The notes under the pieces: model-generated | What the model saw: only the letters and a program-made list of their open reading frames with translations | What the model was told of the DNA's origin: nothing | The model's database searches: none | Program-made: the position numbers and the translations under genes | Shown: piece after piece, positions 23,097 to 61,619 of the stretch | Layout: each line of letters opens with the position of its first letter | Numbering within the stretch: the stretch's first letter is position 1 | Source of the DNA: Vicinamibacteria bacterium | GTDB lineage: Bacteria; Acidobacteriota; Vicinamibacteria; Marinacidobacterales; Marinacidobacteraceae | Length of the DNA: 64,000 bases | Reading direction: 5' to 3' | NCBI GenBank assembly: GCA_963555995.3 | Contig: OY821641.1 | Coordinates: 1,600,001 to 1,664,000, forward strand

Positions 23097-23119
23097 AAGC
23101 CGTTTCCGCCGTCATTCCG

Positions 23120-30375: not shown

Positions 30376-32304
30376 GTGGCTGAGTCGGGCCTCCCGGCGT
30401 TCGAGCGCGCCCGCGGGGTCGCGGTCGGCGTCCTCACCCTCCTGCTGACCGGCTTCGTGCTGGTCGAGGTGAACCGGCCGGCGCTCACCCCCCAGGCGCA
30501 GCTTGCGGCATTCGGGCTCGCCGGCCTGCCGCTCGCCTTCCTCATCCGGATGAAGCCCGGCGATCCGTGGTGGCGGCGCGGGACGGACATCCTGGGTCTG
30601 CTGTCCGCGGTGGCGGGCTGCGCCTACGTCCTCTACTGGAGCGGTTTCGGTCCGGAGGCGCTCGGCGACCGCGCCGGCGGGGAGACCGGCCTCGACATCG
30701 CGCTCGGGCTCCTCGGGCTGTTCGGCGTGCTCGCGGCGACGGCGCGGGTGATCGGGCCCGCCCTGCCCGTCCTCGCGGGTCTCTTCCTCGCCTACGCCCT
30801 GATCGGCCCGCACCTTCCGGAGTTCCTCTTCCCCCACCGGGGCTATTCGCTCGCCCGCATCGCTTCCCAGGGGTTCCTGCAGAGCCAGGGGGTCTTCGGG
30901 ATCGCGATGAAGGTCATGTTCGCCTACGTGTTCCTGTTCGTGGTGTTCGGGGCGATGCTGCAGGCGACCGGGGCCATCCGCTTCATCACCACCTCGGCGC
31001 GCCGTCTCTTCCTCGGCACGGTGGGAGGCGCGGCCAAGGTCTCGGTGGTCGCGAACGCGATGATGGGGTCGCTGTCGGGGAGCGCCGTCGCCGACGCGGC
31101 GACCACCGGCACGGTGACCATCCCCCTGATGCGGAGCACCGGCTTCACCGCGCGCGCGGCGGCCGGGATCACGGCGGCGGCCAGTTCCGGGGCGGCGCTC
31201 GTGCCGCCGGTGATGGGCGCCGCCGCCTACATGATGCTCGAGCTGGTGGACCCGCCGGTGAGCTATCTCCAGGTGGTGCAGGCGGCGATCCTCCCCGCCC
31301 TCCTCTACTACGTGGCCCTCATCGCCATGGTCCACCTGCACGCCCGCCGCCATCTGGTGACGGCCCCGGCGGACGGCGAGGCGGAAGGGAACGGCGAGCA
31401 GGTCCCCCTCCAGGCGGGCATCGTGTTCGGGGTCGGCCTCGTTTCGCTGGTCGTGGCCCTCCTCGCCGGACGGACCGTGTTCCGGGCGGTCAGCGTCGCC
31501 TTGCTGATCGTGGTCCTGGCCTCCCTCTGGCACCACAGCACCCGCCCCGACCTCCGGAAGCTGCTGGATTCGCTGAGGCGGATCGCCCAGGGGGCCGCTC
31601 CCCTGGTCGCGGCGGCCGGAGCCGTCGGAATCATCCTCGGCATGGTCACCCTCACGGGGCTCGGCACCCGCTTTCCGGCGGCCGTCCTGTCGGTCGCCGG
31701 CGAAGGGCTGCTCCCTGCCCTCCTCCTCATCATGGTGGGTTCCATCGTCCTGGGGATGGGGCTCCCGTCGGCCGTCTGCTACCTGCTGATGGCGATCCTC
31801 ATCGGGCCGGTGATCGGCCAGCTCGGCGTGCCCCCGCTCTCGGTGCACTTCTTCATCTTCTACTTCGGGATGATGTCCATGGTGACCCCGCCGGTGGCGC
31901 TCGCCGCCTACACCACCGCGGGCATCGCCAACACCCCGATCATCCCGGCGGCGCTCACCGCCTTCCGCTACGCGCTGGCCGGGTTCGCCCTGCCCTACTT
32001 CTTCGTCTTCCGTCCGGAGCTTCTCCTGATCCTGGACGGAGGCCGCGGCGTCCCCGGAGCGATCGTCGCCGTCCTCCTGGGCAGCGCGGTCGTGCTGCTC
32101 CTCTCGGTGGGGATCGCGGGCTGGCTGTTCGGCCCGCTCACGGCGCCCGTTCGGGCCGCCGCCCTGACCGCGGCCGGACTCCTGCTCTGGCCGCCGGCGC
32201 CGGGCGAACTGTTCGCGTTGCCCAACTTCCTGGGAATGGCGGCGCTGGCGGCGCTTCTCCTCTTCGCGTACCTCGGTCCGCGCCGCAGCCCGGCGGCGAG
32301 TTGA
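30376..32304 (+). CDS. TRAP transporter 4TM/12TM fused permease
   Basis: GGAAKVSVV, GSAVAD...TG.VTIP, PPVMGAAA, GMGLPS, TPPVALAAY. Confidence 0.93.
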   Translation: MAESGLPAFERARGVAVGVLTLLLTGFVLVEVNRPALTPQAQLAAFGLAGLPLAFLIRMKPGDPWWRRGTDILGLLSAVAGCAYVLYWSGFGPEALGDRAGGETGLDIALGLLGLFGVLAATARVIGPALPVLAGLFLAYALIGPHLPEFLFPHRGYSLARIASQGFLQSQGVFGIAMKVMFAYVFLFVVFGAMLQATGAIRFITTSARRLFLGTVGGAAKVSVVANAMMGSLSGSAVADAATTGTVTIPLMRSTGFTARAAAGITAAASSGAALVPPVMGAAAYMMLELVDPPVSYLQVVQAAILPALLYYVALIAMVHLHARRHLVTAPADGEAEGNGEQVPLQAGIVFGVGLVSLVVALLAGRTVFRAVSVALLIVVLASLWHHSTRPDLRKLLDSLRRIAQGAAPLVAAAGAVGIILGMVTLTGLGTRFPAAVLSVAGEGLLPALLLIMVGSIVLGMGLPSAVCYLLMAILIGPVIGQLGVPPLSVHFFIFYFGMMSMVTPPVALAAYTTAGIANTPIIPAALTAFRYALAGFALPYFFVFRPELLLILDGGRGVPGAIVAVLLGSAVVLLLSVGIAGWLFGPLTAPVRAAALTAAGLLLWPPAPGELFALPNFLGMAALAALLLFAYLGPRRSPAAS

Positions 32305-32325
32305 TGCCGGCGGCCCGAACGTCCG

Positions 32326-33708
32326 TCAGCCACCGATGCAGTAGAGCGCTTCCGCGGTCCTGAGGAAGATCCGGCCCCCGGACATGGCCATCGAACTCAG
32401 GGTGTAGGCGCCCATGTCGTTGGTGGCGAGGATTTCGAGGGCGTCGCTCCCCAGCCCCACCACGGTGGCCACGCCGTCCTCGTTGATGATGTAGATGCGG
32501 CCCTCGGCCAGCACCGGCGAGGCGCTGTAGGTGCCGGACGGCAGCCGGGTCGGCCCCAGCAGGACCTCGCCGGTCTTGGCGTCGAGCGCGTACATCACCC
32601 CGTTGTCGGTCACCACGTAGAAGCGCTCGCCGTCGGTCACCGGGCTCGGGACGTCGGGTCCCCGGTCGAACGACCAGACGCGGTGCGAGTCGGTGATGTC
32701 CCCTTCCCCGCCGGTGCGGAGCGCGAGCAGCGGCTTCACCCGCGTCGGCGCGTAGATGATGCCGTCCTTCACCACCGGGGACGCCACGATGCGGTAGGCG
32801 CCGTTGTTCTCCGGGTTGAGGCCGTCGGAGCGCCAGCGCTCCCGGCCGGTGTCGAGATCATGTCCCGTCACCACATCGCCCCCGGTGATCACCAGTTCGA
32901 AGCGCCCGTCCACGTCGTGGACGAAGGGCGTCGTGTAGGAGTCGGGGGATTCCCGGATCGCGTCGGTCGGCCGCTCCACCCGCCACTCGGTCTCGCCGGT
33001 CGCCTTGGCGATGCGCAGGAGGTAGGAGGGGTCGTCGGTCTTCATCCCGTGCAGCACCTGCACGTAGATCGCGTCCTCGAAGAGGAGCGGGCTGCTCGCG
33101 TAACCCCAGTTCAGTCCGAAATCGCCGTAGTCCGCCGGGATGTTGCGCGACCAGCGCTCGGTCCCCGCGAAGTCGAACGCCTTGAGGACCCCGGTGCCGG
33201 TCAGCACGAAGACGTGTTCCCCGTCGGTCACCGGAGAGGGCGAGGACATGTTCTGCTTGCGTCCGCGGGTGTCCCGGTCGCTCAGGTGACGCGTCCAGCG
33301 CACCGATCCGTCGGCCCGGTCGAGCGCCCACAGTTCGATGTGCCCGGTATAGGCGACGTTGCCGCGGCCCTCGGCGGCGCGGCGCCGGCGGCCGTAACCC
33401 TCGGACGGGTTGGCGGGGACCCCGGCGGCGTCCTCCGGGATGGAGACGTTGAGGAAGATCGTGTCTCCCGAGATGATCGGGGTCGCGCCGCTCCAGGCGG
33501 GCATCGGAACCTTCCACACGATCCCGTTCTCGGTGTCCCATTCGACCGGCAGGCCGGTCTCGCCGCTGACCCCGTCGTGGGTGGGGCCGCGCCAGTGCGG
33601 CCAGTCCTCGGCGAAGGCGGTTGCCGGGAGGAAACCGGCGGTCAGCAGGACCGGGAGAAGTCGAAGAGCGAGTCGGGACACGGCGGGACCTCCGGAAGTG
33701 CCGTCCAT
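32326..33708 (-). CDS. PQQ-like (BamB-type) beta-propeller secreted protein
   Basis: Signal peptide, DWPHWRGP, repeated SPV/SPL and W motifs. Start is approximate. Confidence 0.85.
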
Positions 33709-33727
33709 TGTAGAAGGACGAGCGGAA

Positions 33728-35923
33728 CTACCGCGTGATCCCGAAGAGCCGGTCAATCGCCCGGATGACGAGCACGCCGCCGCTCGCCGCCGGGGACGCC
33801 ATCACGATCCGGTCCACGCTGTTCTTCGCGAGCAGCTCGTATTCGCGTCCCGCCCGCACGACGAACGTCTCCCCTTCCTCGGTCGTGAAGTAGAGCCGGC
33901 CGTCGGCGGCGAACGGCGAGGCCGCGTAGGAGCCCCCGACGCCCCCGATCCGGGCGCGGTAGAGACGCTCGCCGGTCTCGCCGTCGTAGGCGGAGAGGCG
34001 GCCGTTGTTCGCGCCGAGGTAGAGGACGCCGCGGTAGAAGATCGGCGAGGGGATGTACACCCCGCCCCGATCCTTGCTCCAGGCGATGGCCTCGCTCGAA
34101 TCCTCACCGGGCGCGAGGGTGAGGTCGCCCTCCGCCCCGGGCCGGATCGCGTAGATCGGGCGGATGGGCGGATATCCCGCCTGCACGAACAGCAGGCCGT
34201 CGCCGAGCAGCGGCACGCTGATCGGGATCTCCGAGTTGGGGCCGAGTCGCCAGCGCTCGGCGCCGGTGGCCGCGTCGTAGCCGCGGATCACGGTGCCGTT
34301 CACGACCACCTCGGCGTCTCCCCCCACGTCGTGCACGAACGGCGTGGAGAACGTCGAGACCTCGTCGCGGGGGGTCCGCCAGCGGGGTTCTCCGTCTTCG
34401 AGGCCGAAGGCGCCGAGGAAGGCGTCGCCGTGGACGTCCGCCAGCACGATCACCGCATCGCCGTGGATCACGGGAGAGGAAGCGTGGCCCCACTGGTAGT
34501 CGGGGTCGTAGAACCAGCCGCTGTTCAGGACCCCGACCTCACGCTCCCAGAGCAGGTTGCCCTCGAGGTCGTGAGCGAGGAGCGCGCCCATGCTCCCGAG
34601 CAACGTGACGATCCGCTCGCCGTCGGTGACCGGGGTGGCGTTCGCCTGGCTCGACTTGGTGTGCCGGCGTGTCATCGGGACGCCGCGCCGCAGTTCGGTG
34701 GTCCAGAGCGGTTCTCCGGTCAGGAGCTCGAACGCTCGCAGTTCCCAGCGGTGCTCGCTGTCGTTCTGGACCGGCGCAACATCGCCGTAGAGGCCGATCC
34801 GGAACTCCGAGTCCTCGGTCAGGCTCGCGGCGATGACCACGTACACCCGGTCCTCCCACACGATCGGGCTCGACACCCCGAGACCCGGGAGGGGGGCTTC
34901 CCAGGCGATCCCCTCGCCGTCGGCCGCGTTCCAGCGGAGCGGCACTCCCTGCTCGTCGGCGATCCCCGATCCCCGAGGACCGCGGAACTGCGGCCAGGGG
35001 CGCGCCCGGATGGGCGCGAGGTCTCCCGGTGCGGAAGCCGCTTCCGCGGCCACCGCCGCCTCGGCGACCTCCCGCGCCGCGGCGCGGCTTTCGGCCTCAC
35101 CCTCGGGCCCGTAGGCGACCGTTTCGCCGCCGGTTTCGACGATCAACCGCTCGACCATGCCGCCCCGGCCCGGGAAGCCGTAGCGGGCTCCGCCCTCGGT
35201 GATGAAGGACCGCGGGCCGCCGCGCGGCGCGAGCGCGACCGGGGGACCGGTGAAGCGCTCGTCCCCCGAACCGGAGTCACGCTCGAAATTGCGCGCCTGA
35301 AGCACTCCGTCCTCGGACACGACCCGCACTCCCCGCTCCGCGGTCTCGTTCCAGTAGCTCCCGGCGAGCTGCTGCCGGGCCTCCTCGGTGAGCTCGGGCG
35401 CCGCCGCCGCCCGCGCGGTCCGCTCCCGGAGAAGGGCCGCGATGCCTTCCGAGGCCGCGGCCTCCCGCGCGGCCGCGAGCGCGTCCTCGTCGAAGTTCCC
35501 GTTATCGAGGACGGCGTGCAGCAACTCCTCGTCACCCTGCCGCGACGCCCGCACCAGCAGCCCGCCGACGCCCGGCGCCCCGCGTCCGAGCAGGAAGAAG
35601 ACGACCTCCCGGTGTCCGGAGCCCGCGGCCCGGCCGAGGGCCGTCATCTGGTAGAAGCGGTCCTCGATGCCGAGGGCTGCCCCCGCATCGGCGAGGCGCC
35701 GGACGGCATCCAGATGTCCCCGGTCGGCGGCGAAGAACAGCGCGGTGGCGCCGTAGCGGTTCGGAGCGTCCACGTCGGCGCCAGCGGCGAGCAGCTCTTC
35801 GATCTGCCCGACGTCACCGTCCCGGGCGGCGCTACGGAGCGCCTCGCCCGGGTCCTCCTGGGCCCCTGCGGAAGGTGCGAGAAGCAGCGCGAGCGCCGCC
35901 AAAAAGACTGAGAGAGATTTCAC
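33728..35923 (-). CDS. Ankyrin-repeat plus PQQ-like beta-propeller fusion protein
   Basis: RBS GGAGGAGG, GTG start, signal peptide, ankyrin repeats ([10 protein letters not shown]...GADVDA; [13 protein letters not shown]; [11 protein letters not shown]), then a WPQFRGP propeller. Confidence 0.85.
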
Positions 35924-36037: not shown

Positions 36038-36793
36038 ATGGCCCAGTACGACGCGATCGCCGCCGCCTACCAGGACTCGAAGCAGCTTCCCTTCCGGAAA
36101 CACATCGAGCGCCACACGCTCTTCGAGGCCCTCGGAGACCTGCGCGGCCTCCGCGTGCTCGACCTCGCGTGCGGGGAGGGTTTCTACACCCGGCTGTTGA
36201 AGCTGGCGGGCGCCGCCGAGGTGACCGGGGTGGACATCTCGGAAGAAATGATTCGCCTCGCCGAGCGGCAGGAACGGGAGAACCCCCTCGGATGCCGCTA
36301 CGTCGCCTCCGACGCGGCGGAATACCAGCCCGAAGGCCCCGTGGACCTGGTCGTCGCCGTGTACCTCCTGCACTACGCCGGGAGCGCGGACAAGCTGCTC
36401 CGCTTCCTCGAGGTTTGTCACGCCGCGCTCCGTCCCGGCGGACGGCTCGTCGGGTTCAACGACAACGTGCTGGACCCGCCGCGCGGGACCGTTTCCTGGA
36501 GCAAGTACGGGATCGTCAAGACGGGACCGGCCATCCCCACGGCGGGCGCGCCGATCCGCTACCGCCTCACGAACTCCGACGGCGCGACGTTCGAGTTCGA
36601 CAACTACTACGAGAGCCCCGAGACCTACGCGCGGGCGTTCGAGGCGGCGGGCTTCCGCGACTTCCGCTGGCTCGACGTTTCGCTCGACCCCGCCGAGCGG
36701 AACAACCCCTTCTGGGACGACTTCCTCAAGAACCCGCCGGTCATCGCCTTCACCGCGAAGAAGCAGTTGCGGGGAGTTCGCCACCGGGCGTGA
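36038..36793 (+). CDS. Class I SAM-dependent methyltransferase (ToxA-like small-molecule MTase)
   Basis: VLDLACGEG, GVDISEEMI, YLLHYA, LRPGG. Confidence 0.9.
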   Translation: MAQYDAIAAAYQDSKQLPFRKHIERHTLFEALGDLRGLRVLDLACGEGFYTRLLKLAGAAEVTGVDISEEMIRLAERQERENPLGCRYVASDAAEYQPEGPVDLVVAVYLLHYAGSADKLLRFLEVCHAALRPGGRLVGFNDNVLDPPRGTVSWSKYGIVKTGPAIPTAGAPIRYRLTNSDGATFEFDNYYESPETYARAFEAAGFRDFRWLDVSLDPAERNNPFWDDFLKNPPVIAFTAKKQLRGVRHRA

Positions 36794-36807
36794 TCGCGTA
36801 CCGGCTT

Positions 36808-36830
36808 GGAACGCCGGTCTCCAGACCGGC
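36808..36830 (+). repeat. REP-like palindrome
   Basis: GGAACGCCGGTCTCCAGACCGGC, identical to 22900-22922. Confidence 0.85.
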
Positions 36831-36885
36831 ACCGCGGCCCGCAGGGCCGCAGCGGCGCAGCGCCCGCCGGGCCGTGCGGCCGGTC

Positions 36886-37415
36886 GAATCACACAAGCTC
36901 GGGGCGTGAGGCAGGCCGAATCACACAAGCTCGGGGTGCGAAGCGGGCCGAATCACACAAGCTCGGGGTGCGAAGCGGGCTGAATCACACAAGCTCGGGC
37001 CGTGAGACGGGTCGAATCACATAAGCTCGGGGGTGTGAGGCGGGCTGAATCACATAAGCTCGGGGGTGTGAGGCGGGCTGAATCACATAAGCTCGGGGCG
37101 CGAGACGGGCCGAATCACATAAGCTCGGGACGCGAGACGGGCCGAATCACACAAGCTCGGGGCGCGAGACGGGCCGAATCACACAAGCTCGGGGTGCGAA
37201 GCGGGCTGAATCACACAAGCTCGGGCCGTGAGACGGGTCGAATCACATAAGCTCGGGCCGTCAGATGGGCTGAATCACATAAGCTCGGGGGTGTGAGGCG
37301 GGCTGAATCACATAAGCTCGGGGCGCGAGACGGGCCGAATCACATAAGCTCGGGGCGCGAGACGGGCCGAATCACACAAGCTCGGGGTGTGAGGCGGGCT
37401 GAATCACACAAGCTT
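36886..37415. repeat. Tandem array of 17 units, 32-33 bp period
   Basis: 15-bp core GAATCACAYAAGCTC at 36886, 36918, 36950, 36982, 37014, 37047, 37080, 37112, 37144, 37176, 37208, 37240, 37272, 37305, 37337, 37369 and 37401, separated by 17-18 bp semi-variable segments. Confidence 0.95.
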
Positions 37416-37425
37416 GGCTGCGAGC

Positions 37426-40230
37426 TTACGAGCGCACCCGGCGCGTCCGTTTGCGGCGCGTTTTCTTCTTGGCGCTCGCGGTGAGGGGAGCGCGCATCCG
37501 CTCGTAGAGCGCGAAGAGGTGCTCGACACGTTCCCGCTCCGACGGGAATTTGCGGGGCCGGTAGAGGCGGTCCACGGCGCGGTCGAGGGTTGCGTGCGTT
37601 CGGCGCAAATCCGGCGGCATCAGATCCGGATCGTAGAGGTCGGCGAGCGTCGCTTCCGGATAAGCGGCGCGGGCGTCAAGCACGGCCTCGGCGAGGGGAT
37701 CCAGCGTTGACAGGTCCGCTCCCCCCGGGGGTGGCGGGAAGGGGTTGTACACGAAGCCGCTCGAATACCGGTAGTCGCTCTTCAACCGGCCGCCGATGTT
37801 CCTGAGCCACGCCATGTGCATGGCGGAGGTGAGAAGCCCGAAGAGACCGAGCGTGGCGTCCTCTACGACCAGCAACTGGTTGCTGGGAATCGCCGGCGGG
37901 CTCAGGTATCCGATCGGAACGTATCGGCGTCGTTCCGAGCTGACCTCCGGAATCACGAGAAAATCCCTCGTGGGGACAACCGTGACGTGGAACTCGGTTG
38001 GACGGTCGGCGAGCGACTGGCCCAGTTTCCCGGCTTCGGTCGCCCGGTAGTTGCGCACGGCCCTGATGCGCCCCATCACGCCCGGCAGGACGCGCAGCTT
38101 CGCCGGCGACTCGCCGGCAGGATAGAGGATCCACCGTTCGAGGCGATTGATGTGCTCCCTGCCCCCGATGAATGGGCGCACCATCGTTCGGGCACCCGGT
38201 TCCATCGCCAGCAGGTTCGCGCGTTCCGTCGCGTCGAGAACGTAGTGGCCGCCGTCCACCGGTTTGGAACCTACGCCGATCCGAGGAAAGCCGCCGGAAG
38301 AGCTCCGCTCGCGCTGAACGACCAAGTGGGGATTCTGCAACCCCCCGGCGTCGAACAGGTACGGGGAGAGCGCCGCGTGCGCGCTCTCGTGCGGGTCTCC
38401 CTTCGGGTCGTCGTAGGAAAAGAGGCGCCGGACCGGTGGAGCGGCCGCCCGATCCGCCAAGCCCACGATGACGACATGCACATGGGCCATGCCGCGTGCC
38501 TCGGACTGCCACGCGAACGTGCGATGGGCGAAGGCGATCTCCAGTCCGTAGCGGGAGAACAGGGCCGGCCAGAGCTGGGGCGCCTGCTCGCCCTGCGTGA
38601 TCGAGTTCGTGGCCACGAACCCGATTCGGGCCCGTCCTCCCTTGAAATAGCCCCCGGCCTTGAGGAACCACGCCGCCACGTAGTCGAGCCGCGAGCCCGT
38701 CGCTCCGAGCTCCGCCATGAGCGTCCGCGTCTGCCGTTGTTTCGGCGCGTCACGCCAGACGAACCCTCCGAACGGCGGGTTGCCGAGGATGAACGAGCAG
38801 TTCTTCGCCGACAGCACATCTTCCCAGTTCATCTCCAGCGCGTCGCGGCAGTGGATGTGCGGTGAGCGCCGCAGCGGAATCCGGGCGTACGCCTCGCCGA
38901 ACTCCAGACTGAGTTCGTTGTTCATCAGGTGGTCCATCATCCACAGCGCCACCTCGGCGATCCGGGCCGGGAACTCCCCGATCTCGATGCCGTAGAACCG
39001 GTCCACATCGAGCCGGGACAGCGAACTCACGTCGAACTGAAGGACGCGCCGCTCCCCGCGCCTCAGCAACTCGCGGAGCACCTCGAGCTCCAGCCGGCGG
39101 AGCTCCCGGTAGGCGATCACGAGGAAGTTGCCGCAGCCGCAGGCGGGATCGAAGAAGGTGAGTTCGCCGAGCCGATCCTGAAACGCTCGGAGTTGCGTCG
39201 CCCGACCCCGGCGGAGTGCCCTGACCCGGGCGAACTCGTCCCATAGCTCGTCGAGGAAGAGCGGCTGAATGACCTTGAGGATGTTCGCTTCCGTCGTGTA
39301 GTGCGCTCCCTGCGCGCGGCGCTCCACCGGGTCCATCACGAACTGGAAGAGCGACCCGAAGATCGCCGGGGAGATGCTCGACCAGTTGAACCGGCAGGCT
39401 GCGAGCAACTGCTCCCGCATCGTTGCCGTGAAGTCGGGGATCGAGATCCGGTCCGCGAAGAGGTCCCCGTCCACGTGCGGGAACCGCGCCAGATCCTCGT
39501 CGAGCGCCGCTCCCCTCTCGCCTTCGGGCGTGTCCAGCACCTGGAAAAGCCGCATCAGCAACGGGCCGAGGTCGGTCCCGTCCTCGCGGGTCCGGGTCTC
39601 CACGAAGTCGAGCAAGAGATCCCGCGGCTCGAACACCCCGGTGTCGTCCGCGAACAGGCAGAACACGATCCGCACCAGGAACCGTTCGAGGTCGTGCCGC
39701 GCGTAACCCGTATCCCGAAGGCTGTCGTGAAGTCTCCCGACCAGTTCCGCCGCCTCGATGTTCGCCGGGTCCTGATCGCGAAACGTCCGGCTGGCCACCC
39801 CCAGGATGAAGCCGAACTTCTCGACGTGGTCCGGCAACTGGTCGAGCTGGAAGGAAGCCACGTCCCGCTGGAGCAGGTCGTGCAACTCGAAGCGCTGGAA
39901 GTCGCTCACCAGGATGAAGCGGGGCTTGTCGCGCTCGGCAAGCGCGTCGAAATAGCCCCCGGCCTGTTCGTAGGCCGCTTCCAGGTCGCGTCCGGCGCTC
40001 TTCTGCTCGACGATCAGGACGCCCGGCCAGAAGAGATCAATGAACCCGCCGGTGTCGTCGAGCTTCTGGACGTGTTCCTCGTAGCGGGCCACCGACTCCC
40101 GGCGCACCCCGAAGATCTGGAAGAAATCGTTGTAGAAGCTCTGCGTCTCGCCCTTCTCGTAACTGGCGTCCGCCCACTTCCGCGCGAAGGACGCCGAACG
40201 GACTCGAATCTCGTTCCAGGAGAGGCGCAT
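37426..40230 (-). CDS. MmeI-like type IIL/IIG restriction-modification enzyme (nuclease, N6-adenine MTase, TRD)
   Basis: PD-(D/E)xK-like FIDLFWPGVLIVEQKS, GAHYT, motif I FFDPACGCGNF, motif IV GNPPF, VSSERRRYVPIG, GGRLKSDYRYS, TLADLYDP..MP. Confidence 0.92.
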   Translation of the reverse strand: MRLSWNEIRVRSASFARKWADASYEKGETQSFYNDFFQIFGVRRESVARYEEHVQKLDDTGGFIDLFWPGVLIVEQKSAGRDLEAAYEQAGGYFDALAERDKPRFILVSDFQRFELHDLLQRDVASFQLDQLPDHVEKFGFILGVASRTFRDQDPANIEAAELVGRLHDSLRDTGYARHDLERFLVRIVFCLFADDTGVFEPRDLLLDFVETRTREDGTDLGPLLMRLFQVLDTPEGERGAALDEDLARFPHVDGDLFADRISIPDFTATMREQLLAACRFNWSSISPAIFGSLFQFVMDPVERRAQGAHYTTEANILKVIQPLFLDELWDEFARVRALRRGRATQLRAFQDRLGELTFFDPACGCGNFLVIAYRELRRLELEVLRELLRRGERRVLQFDVSSLSRLDVDRFYGIEIGEFPARIAEVALWMMDHLMNNELSLEFGEAYARIPLRRSPHIHCRDALEMNWEDVLSAKNCSFILGNPPFGGFVWRDAPKQRQTRTLMAELGATGSRLDYVAAWFLKAGGYFKGGRARIGFVATNSITQGEQAPQLWPALFSRYGLEIAFAHRTFAWQSEARGMAHVHVVIVGLADRAAAPPVRRLFSYDDPKGDPHESAHAALSPYLFDAGGLQNPHLVVQRERSSSGGFPRIGVGSKPVDGGHYVLDATERANLLAMEPGARTMVRPFIGGREHINRLERWILYPAGESPAKLRVLPGVMGRIRAVRNYRATEAGKLGQSLADRPTEFHVTVVPTRDFLVIPEVSSERRRYVPIGYLSPPAIPSNQLLVVEDATLGLFGLLTSAMHMAWLRNIGGRLKSDYRYSSGFVYNPFPPPPGGADLSTLDPLAEAVLDARAAYPEATLADLYDPDLMPPDLRRTHATLDRAVDRLYRPRKFPSERERVEHLFALYERMRAPLTASAKKKTRRKRTRRVRS

Positions 40231-40272
40231 GGCGGCGGCGTATTGTGGCAGCCGTGCCCGCCCGGAAGGCGG

Positions 40273-41133
40273 TCAGCGCACCGAGCAGCCGTCGTCGCAG
40301 CGGACGGTCACGGGTGGGCAGCCGGGCAGCCGGGCGTCGAGCTCGACCCGGTTGAAATCGGTCCACCGGAAGGGGATCGTGGCCCGGAATCCGTCGCCGG
40401 TGCCAGTGGCCGCGAAGCCGGTGGTGAACAGCGAGCTCGCCGGGGGATGCGGAAAATCGTCAATGTCGATCTTCGTCTCGTAGGGGTGGACCATGGACAC
40501 CGAGGCATCCGGGTGGGACGCCGCGAGGGTGATCTCGCCGGTCCGCATCCGGCGGGCCTCCGAGCCGCCGAAGCGGGCCGTGACGTCCAAGCCGCCGCAG
40601 CGCACCGGCGGAGAATCCACCACCACCACCCGCAGCGCGTCGTCGGCGAGGGTCAGCCCCGCCGGGAGCCCGCCGGCGGGGGGCGCGAGCCGGATCGTGT
40701 ACGCGGCGTCCGCCTCGCCCGTTCGCCCGTCGGGGAGCGCCTCGATCGCGAAACGGGCCACCCCGCTGACCTTGATCCGGGGAAATCGCGGGGTGACGGC
40801 GTAGGGGGTGCGGAGTTCGTCCGGCGGCGCGTCCGTGACCACGGCGAACTGGAAGCCCGCTTCCGACCCGCCCAGGGGCGAGCCCGGACTGAGCCCCAGC
40901 ACCCGCACCTCGGCGAAGAAGACGCCGCCTTCCACGACCCGGACCGCGCCGCTCGCCGGGACGAGGGAACTGGCGAGCTTCAGGACGATCTGTTCGCCGG
41001 GGGGCGGCGCGGGAGTCGGCGGGGGCGTGGTCGGCAGGCCGCCGCCGTCGGTGCCCTCCCCGCCGCCGCAGGCGGCGAACCCGAGCAGCGCCGTGGCGGC
41101 GAGGATCGCGGCAACCGGAACGTGGGCGATCAC
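40273..41133 (-). CDS. Hypothetical lipoprotein
   Basis: Hydrophobic signal with AAC lipobox, Pro-rich linker, codon usage fits a gene. Confidence 0.65.
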   Translation of the reverse strand: MIAHVPVAAILAATALLGFAACGGGEGTDGGGLPTTPPPTPAPPPGEQIVLKLASSLVPASGAVRVVEGGVFFAEVRVLGLSPGSPLGGSEAGFQFAVVTDAPPDELRTPYAVTPRFPRIKVSGVARFAIEALPDGRTGEADAAYTIRLAPPAGGLPAGLTLADDALRVVVVDSPPVRCGGLDVTARFGGSEARRMRTGEITLAASHPDASVSMVHPYETKIDIDDFPHPPASSLFTTGFAATGTGDGFRATIPFRWTDFNRVELDARLPGCPPVTVRCDDGCSVR

Positions 41134-41149
41134 GAGTCCGTCCTCACAG

Positions 41150-42286
41150 CTAGCGCGGGACCCGTCCGCGGGCCAACGTGATGTCGGGGATTACGAGCGT
41201 CTCTCCCGCGGTCACTTCCGCCCAGCGCCACTGGTCCTGGAAGTCGAGCACGCCGGCGGCGGCCGCCTCGGCGATCAGGTGCGGGCTGGCGCTCCCGGTG
41301 TCCACCTGGATCGGGTGCACCCAGAGCAGCACGCGCCCCGGCCGCACCCCCGCGACGTGGAAGACGCCGTTCTCGTCGGCGAAGGCGCCGGGACCGGGGT
41401 GCACTCCGGCGCGCGCCTCGAACGTCTGCACGTAGGCGAAGCGGGCGGGCGCGCCGTTCAGGGTCACCCGGCCCGCCACCGCCCCCCGCGACGCGCCGAA
41501 CCCGAGAGCGGGGTAGAGCAGCGCCATCGCCACCCGGTCGTCCTCGCTCAGCTCCCCCTGCTCGCTGGTGTACGCCATCGTCGGCGACGGCCGGAAGACC
41601 GGCGGCGCCCTGTCCTCGCGGACCAGGAAGATCGGCACCGGGTACGGCTCGGTGTGCATCAGGCCGAAACAGTGGCCGATCTCGTGGGTGACCACGTTCG
41701 TGAGTTCCTGCTCGACGATGCCCTCCGCGAACCAGTAGTCCGGGAACGCCGGATTGATCCGCACGTCGCATTCCTGGATCCGGTCGCCGGAGGGGTCCCA
41801 GCCGGCCAGCTCCGCGATGCTGGCGGTGCCGCGCACCTGCCCCTCGAACTGCGGCCAGAAGTACACGTCGTTGCTGCCGTTGATTCCGAGGTCGGCGGTG
41901 TTGGCGGCGGCCCCCCCGACCACCGCCACCCGCAGCGCCGAGCCGGGAACCCGGTCCCAGCGCGCCACGGCGTTCCGGACGACGCGCGCCCACATGGCGG
42001 GGTCCACCGCGTCCGGAAGGGCGCCGGTGTCCGGGACCGTGAAGGTGACCGTGCCGATGCCGGGGTCCCAGCGCATGGCGGAGTCCGCCGCGGTGATGAG
42101 TTGATCGGGGCTGCGCGGCCGGAAGCGGTAGGCGTCCCCCGGGACCGCCAGGAGCAGCGCCGCGCCCGCGGCGGCGCCCAGCGCCCAGCCGGCCCCGCGG
42201 GCCGCGACGGAGCGCTTCCTCGGGAAGGGCCGGTCGAAGCCGTCGCCGCGAGGGAGACCGGGAGCGCCGGTGTCGAGACGTTTCAT
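41150..42286 (-). CDS. Matrixin/M10-like zinc metalloprotease with C-terminal carboxypeptidase-regulatory-like domain
   Basis: HEIGHCFGLMH zinc motif, Met-turn PTMAY, LSEDD...LYP. Confidence 0.85.
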   Translation of the reverse strand: MKRLDTGAPGLPRGDGFDRPFPRKRSVAARGAGWALGAAAGAALLLAVPGDAYRFRPRSPDQLITAADSAMRWDPGIGTVTFTVPDTGALPDAVDPAMWARVVRNAVARWDRVPGSALRVAVVGGAAANTADLGINGSNDVYFWPQFEGQVRGTASIAELAGWDPSGDRIQECDVRINPAFPDYWFAEGIVEQELTNVVTHEIGHCFGLMHTEPYPVPIFLVREDRAPPVFRPSPTMAYTSEQGELSEDDRVAMALLYPALGFGASRGAVAGRVTLNGAPARFAYVQTFEARAGVHPGPGAFADENGVFHVAGVRPGRVLLWVHPIQVDTGSASPHLIAEAAAAGVLDFQDQWRWAEVTAGETLVIPDITLARGRVPR

Positions 42287-42309
42287 CGAATTCGGGTTCT
42301 CCGGGGTCG

Positions 42310-43752
42310 CTACTCCGGGCCGAAGGCGTAGAGGGCCTCGACGGTGCGGATGTAGAGGCGGGAGGGCGCGATGGCCGGGGTGGCGTACACCGCTTCCCCG
42401 AGCGGGTTGACCTGGACGACGTCGAGTTCCGCAGTCGTCTCGCCCGGGTCGAGCGGGCGCACCACGGCCGCGAGGCCCAGCTCGCTCACGAAGTAGATCT
42501 TGCCGTCGGCGGCGACCGGGGAGGCGTAGTAGGCGTCCACCGCGCCCGCGAGCCGCGCCTGGGAGAGCATGGCGCCGGTATCCGGGTCGAGTGCGGTCAC
42601 GATGCCTCCGTCGTTGACCATGTAGAGGACGCCGCCGTAGAGCAGTGGCGAGGGGAGCTGCGGCACCCGCCGCCGGTAGCTCCAGACGGTGTTCGGTTCC
42701 GTCAGGTCGCCGGCCTCTCCGGGGGCGCCCGGGCGGATCGCCAGGATGCCGTTCTGGGAGGAAAGGACCGCCTCGTAGTAGGCCCAGTCGCCGGCCTCCA
42801 GGTTTCCATTGCTGTTCAGGTCGATCACGTCGAACCAGAAGTCGGAGTGTCCGGCGGCCTCGGCGCGGGCGAGCACGCCGTCGCCGTCGGCGTCGGAGGC
42901 TGCGAGCGCCTCGGCGAACGTGGGTGGGGTGATCTGGTTGCCGGGCTGGTTCACCGGCGCCCCGTAGCCGTTGACGTAGATCAGGTCTCCCTCGAGCAGC
43001 GGGGTGGACTTCATCTCCCAGGGGAGTCCCCGGACCCACCAGCGGACGGCCCCGTCGGCCACGCCGTAGGCGGTGAGGAGGAAGCTTCCCGGCGCGAGAA
43101 TCTCGGGTCCGTCCGCCGTTTCCCGCAGGACCGGCGTGGAGTGGCCGCTCGTTGCTTCCGGGCGCGGGGTGCGCCAGAGGATCTCCCCGTCCGTCCGATC
43201 GAACGCGACGATCTCCGAGTTGAGGTTCTGGTCGAGCACCAGGATCACGGTATCCCCGGCGAGGATCGGGGAGGCGCCCATCCCGTAGTAGTTGTCGAAG
43301 GGGCCGAGCGGCTGACGCCACGCCTCCCTGCCCTCGCCGTCGTAGCCGATCAGGCCAAGGTCGGGAAAGAACGAGTACACCCCGTCGCCCGTCGCGGCGA
43401 CGCTGGGGGAGGCCGCGTTGTTCCGGGAATCCACCTCGGTCACGCGCTCCCGCTTCGCCGCCGCACGCCACAGTTCCTCTCCGGTCTCGGGATCGAGCGC
43501 GATGGTCAGGAACTCGTTCTCGACGAATGCCGTCACGTGCACGCGGCCGCCCGCGAGGATCGGCGAGGAGTGTCCCGGCGGGAGCGGCGTCCGGAAGATC
43601 AGCGCCCGGTCGGGCCCGAAGACGACCGGGAGTTCCCCGTCGGGACCGATGCCGGTCCCGTTGGGGCCGCGGAACCGGTCCCATTCGGACGCGGCGGCAG
43701 GGGCTGCCATGCCGATGCAAGTGATGACGGGGAGGACGCGGCGAAAACTCAT
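42310..43752 (-). CDS. PQQ-like beta-propeller protein with EF-hand-like insertion
   Basis: WDRFRGPNG; Ca-binding-like loops DADGDGVL..E and DLNSNGNL. Confidence 0.85.
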   Translation of the reverse strand: MSFRRVLPVITCIGMAAPAAASEWDRFRGPNGTGIGPDGELPVVFGPDRALIFRTPLPPGHSSPILAGGRVHVTAFVENEFLTIALDPETGEELWRAAAKRERVTEVDSRNNAASPSVAATGDGVYSFFPDLGLIGYDGEGREAWRQPLGPFDNYYGMGASPILAGDTVILVLDQNLNSEIVAFDRTDGEILWRTPRPEATSGHSTPVLRETADGPEILAPGSFLLTAYGVADGAVRWWVRGLPWEMKSTPLLEGDLIYVNGYGAPVNQPGNQITPPTFAEALAASDADGDGVLARAEAAGHSDFWFDVIDLNSNGNLEAGDWAYYEAVLSSQNGILAIRPGAPGEAGDLTEPNTVWSYRRRVPQLPSPLLYGGVLYMVNDGGIVTALDPDTGAMLSQARLAGAVDAYYASPVAADGKIYFVSELGLAAVVRPLDPGETTAELDVVQVNPLGEAVYATPAIAPSRLYIRTVEALYAFGPE

Positions 43753-43887
43753 GAGAAGGCCCGGGAACTTTACGGCTCTCGGGGTGTCAACCCAATAGTG
43801 TCGCGGGGCGACGGGCGGCGGTGGCGGCCGTACGCAGCCGTGAGGGTGGATGAAGTTGCGATGTGCGCGGCGCGGAGCGCCGCTGGT

Positions 43888-43910
43888 GCCGGTCTGGAGA
43901 CCGGCGTTCC
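43888..43910 (-). repeat. REP-like palindrome
   Basis: GCCGGTCTGGAGACCGGCGTTCC, same family and same flank (GCGCGGCGCGGAGCGCCGC) as the 23074 copy. Confidence 0.85.
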
Positions 43911-43988
43911 AAGCCGCATGCGTCGTGAGGGTGGATGGGGTTGTGCCGGTCGGAAGGCCGCTACCGCGAGAACCGGCCGGCGCTTCCT

Positions 43989-45886
<1,898 letters not shown>

Positions 45887-45890
<4 letters not shown>

Positions 45891-47257
45891 CGCTGGTCCC
45901 TCGTGCCGTCGGCCGCCGCGGCGGCGTCCTCGGCGATCGCGTACAGGTGCTCCGTGCCGCGCAGGTAGATCGTGCCGTCCACGACGGCCGGGGAAGCCAT
46001 CACCGGCTCGTCCACGCTGTTCGTCGCCAGGACCTCGAACTGCGGCCCCGGACGGATCACGTGGGTGTCCCCGTCCTCGCTGGTCAGGTAGATGCGCTCG
46101 CCCGCCACCACCGGCGACGAGAAGAACCGGGACGGGAGCGGCATCCGGCCCCCCTCGTAGAGGACGTCGCCGGTCGCACCGTCGAGCGCGGTCAGGATGC
46201 CGCCGTCGCTGACGAGGTAGAGCACGCCCCGGTGGAAGACGGGTGACGGGACGTAGCCCTGCCCCTTCCGGTAGTCCCAGCGGAGCGAGCCGTCTTCGAG
46301 GTCGAGCGCCAGGATGTTCTTCCGGGGGTACCCCGTCGCGGCGAACACGAGTCCGTCGCCGGAGGCCACCGGGCTCGGCACCGCGTTGCCCCCGAGTCCT
46401 TCCACGCGCCAGCGCTCTTCGCCCGAATCCGCCCCGTAAGCGACGATCTCGTCCGTCCCCATCGCGATCAAGAGCGGGGGGCCGGCCGCGGATGGTGCCA
46501 CCACCGGTGTCGCCCAGCCCACCCGCTGGGCCCGCTCTGCCCGCCAGCGAATGGCGCCGGTGGCGATGTCGAGCGCCGCGATGAAGGACCCGTCACCCTC
46601 CTCCACGTCGCTCTGGACCACGACGAGTCCGGCGGCCGCGATGAGCACGGGAGAGGTCGCCACCCCCATCCCCAGGGTTCCGACGCCCCCGAAGTCCTGG
46701 GACCAGAGGAGGTCTCCCTCCACGCTGAACGCGTAGAGACCCTGCGTCCCGAACCAGGCGACGACCCGCTCGCCGTCGCTCACCGGGGTGGGATTCGCGT
46801 AGGAGCCGATCCGGTGGCGGTTGTCGTAGGGAAGCGCGCCGGCCCGCACTTCCCGGCGCCAGCGCAGCGCTCCGCTCCGGCGGTCCAGAGCGAGCAGCAG
46901 CACGTCCAGCCGCTGGTCGGCGCCCAGGCTGTCGGGGTGGAGGAACTCCTCGCTGCCGAGGAAATGGACGATCGCGCCGTGCCCGTGGACCTTCTCCCCC
47001 GAGATCGCGCTGGTCAGGAAGATCAGGTCTCCGACCACAATCGGCGACGAATGCCCCCGGCCCTCGACCGCCGCCTTCCAGACGACGTTCTCGTCGGCGC
47101 TCCAGCGGAGCGGGGCGCCGGACTCCGCCTGTGCCCGTCCTCCGGGGCCGCGCCACTGGGGCCAGTCTGTTGCCGGGTCCTGGGCGGCCCCCGCGGTCGC
47201 CAGACACGCCGACAGGACGGCCGCAAGCCGGACGGCGCGATCGGGCGAAAGCGTCAC
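45887..47257 (-). CDS. PQQ-like beta-propeller secreted protein
   Basis: DWPQWRGP, GHSSPIV, PTPVSDG. Confidence 0.85.
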
Positions 47258-48630
47258 CGCGGAGGCGTCGTCGCGCCCGCGCCGGGAGACCGGAACGCGT
47301 AGAGGTGGTCCACCCCGCGCATGAAGACGGTCCCGCCCGCCATGGCCGGGGAAGCCCAGATGGCTTCCGGCAGGGAGCTCTCGGCGACGATCTCGAACTC
47401 CTCCTCGGCCCGGAACACCGTCAGGTCGCCCTCGAGGCTGCCGATCAGGACCTGTCCCTCGTACCCGACCGGCGAGGAGTTGTAGCGGCCCGGGTTCGTG
47501 GGGCGGGCCTGGAAATGGAGCGAACCGTCCTCCGGATCGAGCGCGGTGATCACGCCGCCGTCCGACAGGAAGAACAGGATGCCCTGGTAGAGGAGCGCCG
47601 AGGGGAGGTATCCGGTCCCCCGCTCGTAGGTCCAGCGGACGCGGGGTTCGGCCCCCGGCAGCACTTCGAGGGCCCGCATCTCCTTGCCGGGGTAGCCCGT
47701 CGAGACGAAGACGAGGCGGCCGTCGCCGAAGGGCCGGTGGACCGGGGTGTGGACGGGGGCCGAGTCCTCGAAGGGCGCCGTCCGCCAGAGTTCGACGCCG
47801 TTTCCGGCGTCGTAGGCGCCGAGGAAGTGGTAGCCGGGCACGAAGAGCTGGGTGACGCCCCCGACCGGCAGCAGCGCCGGAGTCGCCCAGGCTTTGCGCG
47901 CCCGCCGCTCAGTGCTCCAAGCGATCTCTCCGCTGCGGCGGTCCACCGCGAAGATACGCGAGCCCTCGCCGTCGTCGTTGTCGTGGACGAGGATCAAGGT
48001 CTCGCCGTGCAGCACCGGATTGATCCCGTGGCCGAGCCCCCAGACGCCGTAATCGCCGAGATCGGTCGCCCAGACGGGGTCCCCGTCCAGCGTGAAGGCG
48101 AACAGGCCCTGATTGCCGAAAGAGAAGTAGACCCGCTCCCCGTCGGCGATCGCCGTCAGCGAGGCGTAGGTGTTCGACCGGTACCGGTTGTCGTACACGG
48201 GGCCGTCATGGACCGTCCGCCGCCACACCTCGCGTCCCGTCCGCGCGTCGTAGGCGAGCGCCAGCAGGGTGTGATGGAGGTCCCCGGCCGTGCTCCCGCC
48301 GTGCAGGTACACCTCGCCGTTCCGGACATGCACCGGCGGCTCCCGCCCGGGAATCGGATCGCCGGTGACGGCGGCCGAGACGAAGACGAGCTCGCCCCAC
48401 ACGACCGGTGACGAATGCCCCTCGCCCGGGGTCGCCGTCTTCCAGAGCCCGTTCTTGTCCGGGTCGAACCGGACCGGCAGCCCGGTCTCGGTGGAGACGC
48501 CGTTCGCGGCCGGCCCGCGCCAGGCGGGCCAGTTGGCGGGCTGCTCGGCGCCCGCCGCCGATTGGGCGGCGGGCGCGCCGAAAGCCAGGGCGCCCAGGAG
48601 CAGGACGGCGGCGGGCGGACGGAGGCGCAT
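47254..48630 (-). CDS. PQQ-like beta-propeller secreted protein
   Basis: NWPAWRGP, GHSSPVV; paralog of the downstream gene. Confidence 0.85.
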   Translation of the reverse strand: MRLRPPAAVLLLGALAFGAPAAQSAAGAEQPANWPAWRGPAANGVSTETGLPVRFDPDKNGLWKTATPGEGHSSPVVWGELVFVSAAVTGDPIPGREPPVHVRNGEVYLHGGSTAGDLHHTLLALAYDARTGREVWRRTVHDGPVYDNRYRSNTYASLTAIADGERVYFSFGNQGLFAFTLDGDPVWATDLGDYGVWGLGHGINPVLHGETLILVHDNDDGEGSRIFAVDRRSGEIAWSTERRARKAWATPALLPVGGVTQLFVPGYHFLGAYDAGNGVELWRTAPFEDSAPVHTPVHRPFGDGRLVFVSTGYPGKEMRALEVLPGAEPRVRWTYERGTGYLPSALLYQGILFFLSDGGVITALDPEDGSLHFQARPTNPGRYNSSPVGYEGQVLIGSLEGDLTVFRAEEEFEIVAESSLPEAIWASPAMAGGTVFMRGVDHLYAFRSPGAGATTPPR

Positions 48631-48698
48631 CGGCGGTGCCGCGTATTGTGCCTCCCCGAGGGTCGTTCGGGTGACGCCCACTAGACTTCCTGCCCATC

Positions 48699-50153: not shown

Positions 50154-50409
50154 TCCCGGGACCCAGAGGCGCGCCGGTCTTCGGACCGGCATCGCCAGCA
50201 GAAGACTCGCGGGATGCACCGAGAGACGGAAGGCCATGGCGGCAAGAGTCGTCGGCCTCGATGGATGGAGGGGTGGCTGGATTTCCGCCGTGGGCGATCG
50301 CGGCACGCCGCGGGGTGTCAACACCGGATAGCGCCTCGCGGGCTGCGCCCGGGAACAACGCGTCGCGGCGATTGCACCGGAACGGGAAGAACCGACGATG
50401 ACGACATTC

Positions 50410-50459
50410 GAAATATGGATCGTGTTCCATATTTCCGTTCGGAATATGGATCGTGTTCC
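50410..50459. repeat. AT-rich palindrome / direct repeat (second REP-like family or operator)
   Basis: GAAATATGGA-tcgtgt-TCCATATTTC (50410-50435); AATATGGATCGTGTTCC repeated at 50412 and 50443. Confidence 0.75.
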
Positions 50460-50504
50460 GCGAAACGCCGCTGATGGCAGAGCCGAAGGTACGCTAGAGC
50501 GGCC

Positions 50505-52861: not shown

Positions 52862-52876
52862 GGCCGGCCGCGGCGC

Positions 52877-53257
52877 TTAGTCGCCGCCCTGCGATCCGCT
52901 ACTCACCCGCACCCGGTCGCGCGTCGCCACGATCATTGCGCCGTCCACCATGGACTCTGCCTCGTCCCCAATCAGTTTCCGCATCGTGCTCACCTGCTCG
53001 GGCGCCGACAGGCGATGGAGCCGCACGATGCACGGGTGCGCCATTCCCCGAGCGAACACGAGTTCCCCGTAGTCCTTGTCCTCAGTGATGAGAACCCGTC
53101 CCTCACGGAGGGCCACGCCCATCAGGAACTCATCAGACTCGGGAGATGTGCGGCTGGCGATCACGACATCATGTCCTTCGCCGACCAGCATGGAGGTCAG
53201 CGCCCGCGAAGCGGTACAGACATCAACGAGAAACCGCAGCTGACGCTGCGGTTTCAT
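52877..53257 (-). CDS. DUF5615 PIN-like toxin (VapC45-like)
   Basis: RFLVDVC, GHDV, D..L...ALREGRVLITEDKDYGELVF. Confidence 0.85.
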   Translation of the reverse strand: MKPQRQLRFLVDVCTASRALTSMLVGEGHDVVIASRTSPESDEFLMGVALREGRVLITEDKDYGELVFARGMAHPCIVRLHRLSAPEQVSTMRKLIGDEAESMVDGAMIVATRDRVRVSSGSQGGD

Positions 53258-58584: not shown

Positions 58585-58622
58585 GCCACGGGTCCCCAGT
58601 CAAACAGGCGGCGAAACGGCTT

Positions 58623-61602: not shown

Positions 61603-61619
61603 CAGTCGTCTCCGCCGTT

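Follow-up and report, generated by a model that had tools for sequence, protein, structure and literature searches.

The window, the whole 64,000-nucleotide stretch of DNA analysed here, lies on contig C1 of a 93% complete genome (G000) from a bacterium that is likely associated with a marine sponge. Next to an MmeI-family restriction-modification (RM) gene, it carries a tandem array designated F1 (Table 1). The core, GAATCACAYAAGCT, is present in 17 copies at positions 36886–37414, with 13 spacings of 32 bp and 3 of 33 bp, against a chance expectation of 0.09 cores, and none of 100 shuffles attains 17. Together with TRF (period 32, 17.0 copies, 87%), the core positions bear out the initial annotation in the number of units, the 32/33-bp period and the 10 bases between the last core and the stop codon of the MmeI gene, and also in the nearly invariant 15-bp core, whose 15th base is C in 16 of the 17 copies. 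The span given there, up to 40230, takes in the MmeI gene; the array itself ends at 37415. Between the cores are about five re-used spacer variants, several of them identical, and the higher-order arrangement already described is clearly seen in the mean unit distance, which is lowest at lag 7 (2.1, versus 3.4–5.9 at the remaining lags).

Table 1. Features at the array and the surrounding junction (positions in the window).
Feature	Position	Strand	Remarks
Class I SAM methyltransferase gene	36038..36793	+	Left anchor of variable junction; in 15/15 same-genus genomes
REP-like palindromic element	36802..36850	.	Abundant unrelated family, outside array
F1 array	36886..37415	+	17 cores GAATCACAYAAGCTC, period 32/33 bp, internal 7-unit duplication
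MmeI-family type IIG restriction-modification gene	37426..40230	-	934 aa; junction cargo; 1 of 3 genome paralogs
286-aa gene without Pfam or NCBIfam family	40273..41133	-	Within inserted stretch
378-aa gene without Pfam family	41150..42286	-	Within inserted stretch; zinc-metalloprotease matches weak, far under cut-off
PQQ_2 beta-propeller gene	42310..43710	-	Right anchor of variable junction

The MmeI gene has an uninterrupted frame with DPACGCG and GNPPF motifs and all five MmeI Pfam domains (MmeI_N, hel, Mtase, TRD, and C), and PADLOC assigns it to type IIG. Convergent methyltransferase genes had been proposed on both sides of the array; the left gene is indeed a convergent class I SAM methyltransferase, but by its NCBIfam matches it is no DNA methyltransferase. 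One variant pattern of the REP-like element has 470 matches in the genome, which is repeat-rich and also contains CRISPR-like arrays with a 61-bp period (C1:1462147–1465895).

In 10 of 15 relatives, the PQQ_2 gene directly abuts the SAM methyltransferase gene and the junction is empty, and in 4 of the 15 it holds an array of a different motif, in some cases with defence cargo. G008 has a frameshifted gene of the winged-helix family described below and an F5 array, G002 an MmeI 3′ fragment, a gene remnant and an F5 array, and G009 an array alone. A unit of gene plus array is apparently gained and lost at variable junctions, in many cases together with defence cargo, which here is MmeI. The proposed co-occurrence of arrays with MmeI-like genes was not borne out: the two other MmeI paralogs of the genome have no known core within 2.5 kb, and an array stands at the stop in 0 of the 23 MmeI loci inspected in relatives. 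Five of these 23 MmeI genes are directly followed by a gene of the winged-helix family, which gives an indirect link.

Distribution of the arrays

Copies of the F1 core are confined almost entirely to arrays: 82 of the 83 in the genome sit in seven arrays, and the last has been cut off by an IS21 element. At six loci other than that in the window, the core adjoins unrelated genes; one F1 array, approximately 950 kb from the window array, ends 82 bp ahead of a 375-aa gene (G000:C1:2589677–2590804) that runs in the same direction. The cores are equally conserved in orphan and gene-linked arrays, and the spacers vary. Among 24 relatives, a single genome has the core, in two isolated copies, and the tandem F1 pattern has 0 matches in metagenome and viral contigs. 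The initial annotation had named scattering over unrelated loci as a mark of a neutral repeat; the scattering is there, but neutrality is opposed by the coupling of motif to protein type described in the next section.

The array positions (24 after merging) are distributed uniformly in their distance from the origin (KS p 0.98), and the arrays are evenly spread round the chromosome (gap CV 0.56 vs. 0.76, p 0.037). Among the 13 orphan arrays of 32-bp period in G000, five lie directly beside an RM gene, and RM genes make up 5 of the 26 genes flanking G000 orphans, compared with about 28 of 2808 called genes; this enrichment is not repeated in relatives, where 0 of 34 flanks is a DNA methyltransferase. 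IS and recombinase elements are often inserted in or beside arrays. Modules and orphans are found among RM, TA, SIR2, ABC-ATPase, and cysteine-desulfurase/DUF4007 genes, and numerous gene-linked loci lie between housekeeping genes in conserved synteny.

Several known classes of element were rejected. The core is asymmetric and nearly always in arrays, which argues against REP/BIME, and its orientation is mixed on both arms, which argues against a replichore-polar site (Ter/KOPS-like). A transcription roadblock or insulator was suggested by a convergent bias in G000 orphans (12/21 vs. 18%), but relatives have 3/17. Phage or plasmid carriage is opposed by a search with the domain, which gave one weak match in viral sequences and none in 72,556 plasmids. 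That the array is not CRISPR and has no Cas or Nop gene nearby, as first noted, holds: the spacers are re-used, there is no Rfam match, and no cas family occurs among the neighbours scanned. TIGR-Tas systems are defined by a Nop-domain protein encoded with the array and by unit-length guide RNAs, and PF01798 has 0 matches in the 93% complete genome.

A winged-helix protein family and its phased arrays

The proteins of the family have predicted amphipathic N-terminal helices, a Pro-rich linker and a C-terminal winged helix with a weak match to Fic-like_C (PF21247), scoring 16–24 bits in the six G000 paralogs against a gathering cut-off of 27 bits; two fusion relatives found by the family profile exceed this cut-off. 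In the protein paired with F1 (core, GAATCACAYARGYT), the winged helix is formed by residues 280–365. AlphaFold models have pLDDT 93–97 in the winged helix, an unstructured linker and long N-terminal helices. The top Foldseek rows are winged helices, including 4rgl and 3lmm, all with E > 0.001, and in an atlas search the whole protein falls to Fic-like_C clusters with scores < 0.9, the N-terminus having no usable match there. The median N-terminal hydrophobic moment is 0.63, compared with 0.46 in 200 random proteins, and a transmembrane-like score is reached in 4 of 43. Over 12 pairs, dN/dS is 0.41 for the N-terminus, 0.28 for the winged-helix domain and 0.70 for the linker. No description of the protein family or the arrays was found in the main texts of the largely open-access literature searched.

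Beside each of the six paralogs in G000 stands a phased array with a core of its own (F2 at two paralogs and F1, F3, F5, and F6 at one each), and a seventh core family, F4, has two copies before a paralog in G008. An adjacent 21/32-bp-phased array with at least four copies accompanies 54 of 64 family genes (13 of 77 domain matches were left out as fragments, frameshifted copies or fusions), upstream in 40 and downstream in 14, and the linkage recurs in two other studies at 93–95% identity. Across many different cores, the periods are only 2, 3, 5, and 6 helical turns. Spacings peak at 20–21, 31–33, and 63–65 bp, with 508 spacings giving a phase R of 0.80 at 10.5 bp, and at least 9 of 11 motif bases are common to 82–88% of 74 domain pairs with at least 70% identity, compared with 2–5% of 1232 pairs below 60%, both statistics including two loci (L063 and L073) whose automatic array pick was wrong. 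The recognition-helix columns predict motif similarity no better than the remainder of the domain (partial r 0.21 vs. 0.27), and L032 and L013 have an identical helix stretch and different cores.

When 13 genomes of at most 20 contigs were scored for six motifs, gene and array were found together in 19 cells, the array only in 3, the gene only in 0, and neither in 56; the F3 pattern does not pick up the F3-like genes of G001 and G013, which were left out of F3, a variant core, AGCGTGGAGT, being located beside the G013 gene. Besides the three array-only cells of this near-closed set, arrays without a detected gene are F4 in G000 and those in six fragmented genomes.

More distant domains carry repeats inside the gene. 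At 28 of 44 such loci (L173 left out as an edge artefact), repeats lie in the gene just upstream of the domain, as they do in 0 of 27 control windows, with a 21-bp spacing in 79 of 104 intervals. These loci mostly encode longer fusion proteins, the full-length ones scanned being AlbA_2/HATPase_c_4; the repeats are in frame, and three loci have the 12-bp motif of the closest array type. L175 and L188 carry ATCGACCGGASCT, the “T” motif, and the ten domains nearest to L175 are the ten T-type ones (48–54%), with L175 and L188 outside the T type in the ML tree.

Possible roles of the window array

Because gene and array adjoin in most of the family, the core tracks the protein type, fusions have the same motif and arrays recur at the junction, we believe that the arrays are very probably cognate binding sites, the winged helix binding the array core; against it stands that a linked gene and array would co-vary through inheritance alone. 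The N-terminus is predicted to bind the membrane, which on the modelling we consider probable. Our preferred reading, with a probability of about 0.5, is that a winged-helix protein encoded elsewhere on the chromosome docks at the row of sites in the window array and holds the locus at the inner membrane. With one site per three turns, the protein molecules would be aligned along a single face of the DNA, and their predicted membrane-binding N-terminal helices would hold the array locus at the membrane. The array upstream of the 375-aa gene would in addition serve the autoregulation of that gene, and orphan arrays, including that in the window, would still load protein. Of the functions first suggested, a phased protein-binding array for a regulator stands, with the likely partner being the distant winged-helix protein, not the RM enzyme. 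A housekeeping tether is a poor fit, because 4 of 24 genomes are without the gene, the number of domain matches ranges from 1 to 10 per genome, and broken copies are frequent. The candidate roles are a membrane tether, the best of them, the relic of a lost autoregulated gene, and a DNA antidote for a membrane-active protein.

A cognate array could be a relic at this locus, the operator half of an autoregulated module left by gene deletion or brought in with cargo and capable of passive titration at most, although we consider this rather unlikely. The decayed modules of G008 and G002 and the solitary array of G009 at the same junction speak for it, as do the outlasting of genes by arrays and the IS and recombinase insertions; moreover, a family gene in G014 is flanked on both sides by direct-repeat arrays, so recombination could leave a solo array. 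Yet orphan F1 cores are conserved like gene-linked ones amid variable spacers, no match to the winged-helix-family profile (A1/A2) points to a gene remnant near any G000 orphan, 14 of the 54 gene-linked arrays follow the gene, a position from which an operator cannot work, and a pure repressor needs no conserved amphipathic N-terminus. That N-terminus is central to an explanation as defence or addiction, in which the free cationic protein would damage the membrane unless arrays held it on the chromosome, and phage degradation of host DNA, or array loss, would release it; each paralog would read its own 12–14-bp address, and domain and repeat would have been recruited together from AlbA_2/ATPase fusions that encode their own sites in frame. 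The Trp/Arg-rich N-terminal helices presumably resemble lytic peptides, the family is patchy, with many specificities and often broken, gene-only cells number 0 of 78 where array-only cells occur, and hotspots are re-used by different motif types; the surrounding defence genes, the five MmeI genes followed by a family gene and the even chromosomal spread fit as well. We nevertheless hold an antidote to be unlikely: PADLOC has no match for the protein, the RM enrichment fails in relatives, and many gene-linked loci lie among housekeeping genes.

The remaining explanations dispense with the winged-helix protein. Slippage and unequal exchange could have grown a neutral minisatellite, tied to the gene by descent only, and the internal 7-unit duplication, the ragged ends without terminal repeats by eye, the repeat-rich genome and the arrays without genes all agree with this. 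It is very unlikely in view of the restricted helical periods over many cores, the invariant core beside variable spacers, the 54 of 64 adjacencies and the retention of one 12-bp motif, in frame, by those distant fusions whose domain is the most similar. A processed multi-unit ncRNA (CRISPR-like or TIGR-like guides, or a sponge RNA) is not supported and is less probable still: folding is better on the plus strand than in shuffled sequences (z −5.6), but the minus strand folds alike (z −4.7), and shuffling does not give a fair comparison for a tandem repeat. The TCGG/CYGA pairing seen at first, with G-U-compatible variation at two positions, is present in this array; taken over all 66 F1 units in the genome, it is due to core bases that never change and to C/T transitions, a single compensatory change standing beside 10 broken cells, and only 22 of the 66 form both closing pairs of the GAR mini-hairpin called usual. 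This leaves the RNA option without covariation or a fixed orientation to flanking genes, and scans at the array gave no Rfam, promoter or terminator match and no sigma-70-like site; no Nop domain is found in the 93% complete genome, and the spacers are re-used variants. Equally unsupported, and the most improbable of all, is the view that the array serves the MmeI enzyme as a decoy or for loading, in favour of which the 10-bp distance to the stop and the five orphan arrays abutting RM genes might be cited: one core lies beside enzymes of different types and unrelated genes, the two paralogs and 23 ortholog loci have no such array, and the junction holds another motif in relatives.

If the binding is true, one small domain has yielded over a dozen natural winged-helix/motif pairs, a library in which each domain's site is written beside or inside its own gene and the recognition code is directly testable; the pairs could serve as orthogonal locus tags, analogous to ParB/parS labels. 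In-frame repeats in the AlbA_2/HATPase_c_4 linkers would then be DNA sites, not protein features, since outside genes the period becomes 32 bp, a multiple of the helical turn and not of the codon. Either role, a membrane tether with many addresses or a membrane toxin sequestered on DNA, would be new biology, and this in a lineage of uncultured symbionts.

Comparison with known systems

Plasmid iterons and centromeres of the parC/tubC type are direct repeats at integral turns beside the gene of the presumed binder. The arrays here are chromosomal and multi-locus, and no Rep initiator, ParA, ParM, or TubZ is encoded among the scanned neighbours; an iteron origin or plasmid centromere was rejected for lack of a Rep or partition NTPase gene there. 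Cbp1 on Sulfolobales CRISPR repeats likewise pairs a dedicated protein with a long regular array (PMC10883916); the protein here is unrelated, and there is no CRISPR.

Possibly closer in domain content are CccR, a Fic-attached HTH that binds repeats in its own promoter (PMC9755527), and CbFic2, an HTH-bearing Fic protein (PMC10628234), and the AlbA_2/HATPase_c_4 proteins ending in Fic-like_C (PF21247) have a C-terminal winged helix that is probably related, on weak Pfam matches, and phased repeats in their own gene. The present family has no Fic or ATPase domain and differs in having up to dozens of direct repeats rather than an inverted pair, and arrays also outside the gene and at distant loci, unlike CccR and the fusions.

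The closest functional parallel to a membrane tether is found in Noc and RicO, which bind specific DNA sites and also possess an amphipathic helix (PMC12203958; 10.64898/2026.03.06.710092). In Noc of Bacillus subtilis and RicO/RocS of Staphylococcus and Streptococcus, the amphipathic helix and the domain for DNA binding belong to a single polypeptide, as predicted here, and Noc/RicO sites are dispersed on the chromosome like our arrays, being single motifs rather than tandem phased arrays; their sites also differ from the arrays, which have no origin bias or terminus exclusion. The present proteins have no ParB fold, five paralogs giving no Pfam or NCBIfam match to ParB/Noc or RacA/RocS/RicO, and carry the amphipathic part at the N-terminus and the winged helix at the C-terminus. 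Finally, the family differs from Noc and RicO in its patchy distribution and in comprising up to ten paralogs with different motifs.

The array, its junction and its neighbors

The F1 array of the window is a real, non-random feature: the 17 units at a 32/33-bp period described in the initial annotation are borne out as 17 cores, far above chance expectation, and the higher-order arrangement reported there reflects a 7-unit duplication inside the array. It is an orphan array, with no adjacent family gene, of a winged-helix/phased-array family for which literature searches found no description. As had been noted, 10 bp separate it from the stop codon of the MmeI-family gene, whose frame is uninterrupted, and stops are present in all six frames through the array. 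Directly to its left is a REP-like palindrome from an abundant family unrelated to the array; two variant patterns of such palindromes give 470 and 318 matches genome-wide, and REP-like tandem clusters with units of 80–380 bp occur elsewhere in G000, the source genome, where the window spans C1:1600001-1664000.

The 5.5 kb between the SAM methyltransferase and PQQ_2 genes are, on sequence comparison, variable cargo at a re-used junction whose occupants differ in array type, because the junction is empty, with the two genes directly adjacent, in 10 of 15 same-genus genomes and differently filled in others. An F5 array sits there in four: alone in G009, with an ABC-ATPase gene in G001, with a frameshifted family gene in G008, and with an MmeI fragment, a family-gene remnant and a SIR2 gene in G002. 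One genome has just one small unrelated gene. A site upstream of a cysteine desulfurase gene is likewise re-used, with arrays of three motif types in 5/6 genomes. The window also carries a long series of PQQ_2 beta-propeller genes, one being an ankyrin-repeat fusion. The array likely lies in the terminus region of the chromosome, since the cumulative GC-skew maximum, noted post hoc, falls within the window roughly opposite dnaA.

Coordinates of features in the window and on contig C1 of G000
Feature	Position	Strand
SAM methyltransferase gene	window 36038-36793	+
Variable cargo	window 36794-42309	
F1 array	window 36886-37414	
PQQ_2 gene	window 42310-43710	-
PQQ_2 gene series	window 32300-35900, 42300-53000	
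REP-like palindromes	window 22889-23112, 36802-36850, 43858-43926, 58607-58801, 61429-61618	
Cumulative GC-skew maximum	C1:1623084	
dnaA	C1:3471492	
F4 array L016	C1:114455-114789	
Locus L013	C1:915361-916665	
Three CRISPR-like arrays, 61-bp period	C1:1462147-1465895	
Array locus L002	C1:2171560-2174025	
F1 array L003	C1:2454950-2455028	
375-aa partner gene	C1:2589677-2590804	

The proposed tie to MmeI-like genes did not hold: 0/23 ortholog loci have an array at the stop and none lies near two paralogs, while an F5-type gene directly follows MmeI in 5/23. MmeI, judging from these loci, needs no array. Restriction-modification neighbors and convergent junctions are enriched at the G000 arrays, an enrichment not seen at 17 orphan arrays of relatives. 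The reading as a structured RNA fares no better. The array folds better than shuffles on both strands, as a tandem repeat with an AGCT palindrome would; the postulated junction stem shows one compensatory change across 66 F1 units, and the supposed mini-hairpin is complete in 22 of these. No Rfam family or promoter-like site was found in the array, and no Nop protein in G000.

Array families and the predicted winged-helix partner

A genome-wide look for the core, as earlier suggested, located it at unrelated loci: 83 copies at ≤1 mismatch, 82 of them within 7 arrays of 3–18 units spaced by 32 bp, or by 21 and 32 bp in alternation, and the 83rd severed by IS21. The neighbors are unrelated (AcrB/PQQ, MmeI, AAA-PDDEXK, two further DNA methyltransferases, Fic, ISL3). 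Five further phased-array families, F2–F6, have distinct cores; the F4 array is gene-less in G000, and two F4 core copies precede a paralog in G008 (L055). The three-unit array L003 extends into the 3′ end of a methyltransferase frame, whose final residues it encodes. IS21, other IS and a serine-recombinase element recur in or at the border of arrays (L002, L139, L141, L148, L149, L197), which suggests that arrays are insertion targets for such elements.

The 375-aa partner gene lies 82 bp downstream from the end of one F1 array, and five paralogs in G000 stand next to F2 (two), F3, F5 and F6 arrays. All six proteins share a C-terminal domain with Fic-like_C matches below threshold, for which the AlphaFold model gives a confident winged helix, joined by a Pro-rich unstructured linker to long N-terminal helices; the Foldseek rows are winged helices, none reaching E 0.001. 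Trp and Arg are abundant in the N-terminus, which is under purifying selection and, by hydrophobic moment, strongly amphipathic; no clear transmembrane segment was seen in it. The family was detected in 20/24 same-family genomes versus 0/16 genomes drawn from two further families of that order, and about 50 representatives among 1.84 billion match across most of its profile. Where a full-length homolog lies in a named record, the title is Acidobacteria, Vicinamibacteria or Ca. Marinacidobacterium, and the other sequencing runs that contain some of the region are metagenomes of sponge or marine origin, so the organism likely belongs to this group. At L013, an AlbA_2/HATPase_c_4 gene without the C-terminal winged helix lies divergent from the F3 array and gene, and the module at L150 has a comparable gene ahead of it, an arrangement that may preserve a sign of where the module came from.

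Coupling of genes and arrays

An adjacent array of at least four copies accompanies 54 of the 64 intact domains (40 upstream, 14 downstream), with spacings equal to 2, 3, 5 and 6 helical turns. Motifs grow more alike as domain identity rises (Mantel r 0.51 over 53 rows, related rows not being independent; permutation maximum 0.16). For six motifs in 13 genomes of ≤20 contigs each, 19 cells held gene and array, a count to which the linked array itself contributes, three the array only, none the gene only, and 56 were empty. Orphan arrays are numerous in genomes that have the matching gene; F1 arrays and the F1-type gene are confined to G000 among 25 genomes compared. Contigs of two other studies carry the gene at 93–95% identity, continuing into the array. 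Two arrays in G013 are very long (L211, 85 cores; L212, 42), and at L234 in G002 a duplicated gene-plus-array unit flanks SIR2 and HATPase genes on both sides.

The strongest argument for coupling lies outside the lineage. The family domain is also C-terminal in AlbA_2/HATPase_c_4 proteins (records titled Gammaproteobacteria), with comparable genes in records of Planctomycetaceae and Chitinophaga, and repeats stand immediately before the domain in 28/44 distant loci, mostly in frame at 21-bp spacing, versus 0/27 control windows. The 12-bp motif of the T-type domains occurs in frame at L175, L176 and L188, and the closest domains to L175 are the ten T-type domains. Its retention over 50% protein identity, a different architecture and a different period points to DNA recognition. 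Against this, the tree does not place L175/L188 with the T type, recognition-helix columns predict the motif no better than the remaining domain columns, L032 and L013 share a helix with different cores, and T arrays without a detected gene occur in six genomes, all fragmented.

Possible function and known systems

Most likely, the F1 protein would bind every core via its winged helix, along one helix face, with the flexible linker allowing the amphipathic N-terminus to touch the membrane; an array ahead of the gene would also restrain the gene's own expression, as with CccR, which limits its own expression through promoter repeats (PMC9755527). That the window array is a relic operator array, or that array DNA is an antidote for a putative membrane-active protein, stay serious rivals to this binding model because of the patchy distribution, the broken copies and the defence neighbors. 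The partner family is not a member of the Noc/RicO group: no homology was found among the Pfam and NCBIfam hits of five paralogs, and its own array sites are distributed uniformly round the G000 chromosome. The likeness to Noc and RicO (PMC12203958; 10.64898/2026.03.06.710092) is one of architecture, with the binding and membrane parts here predicted.
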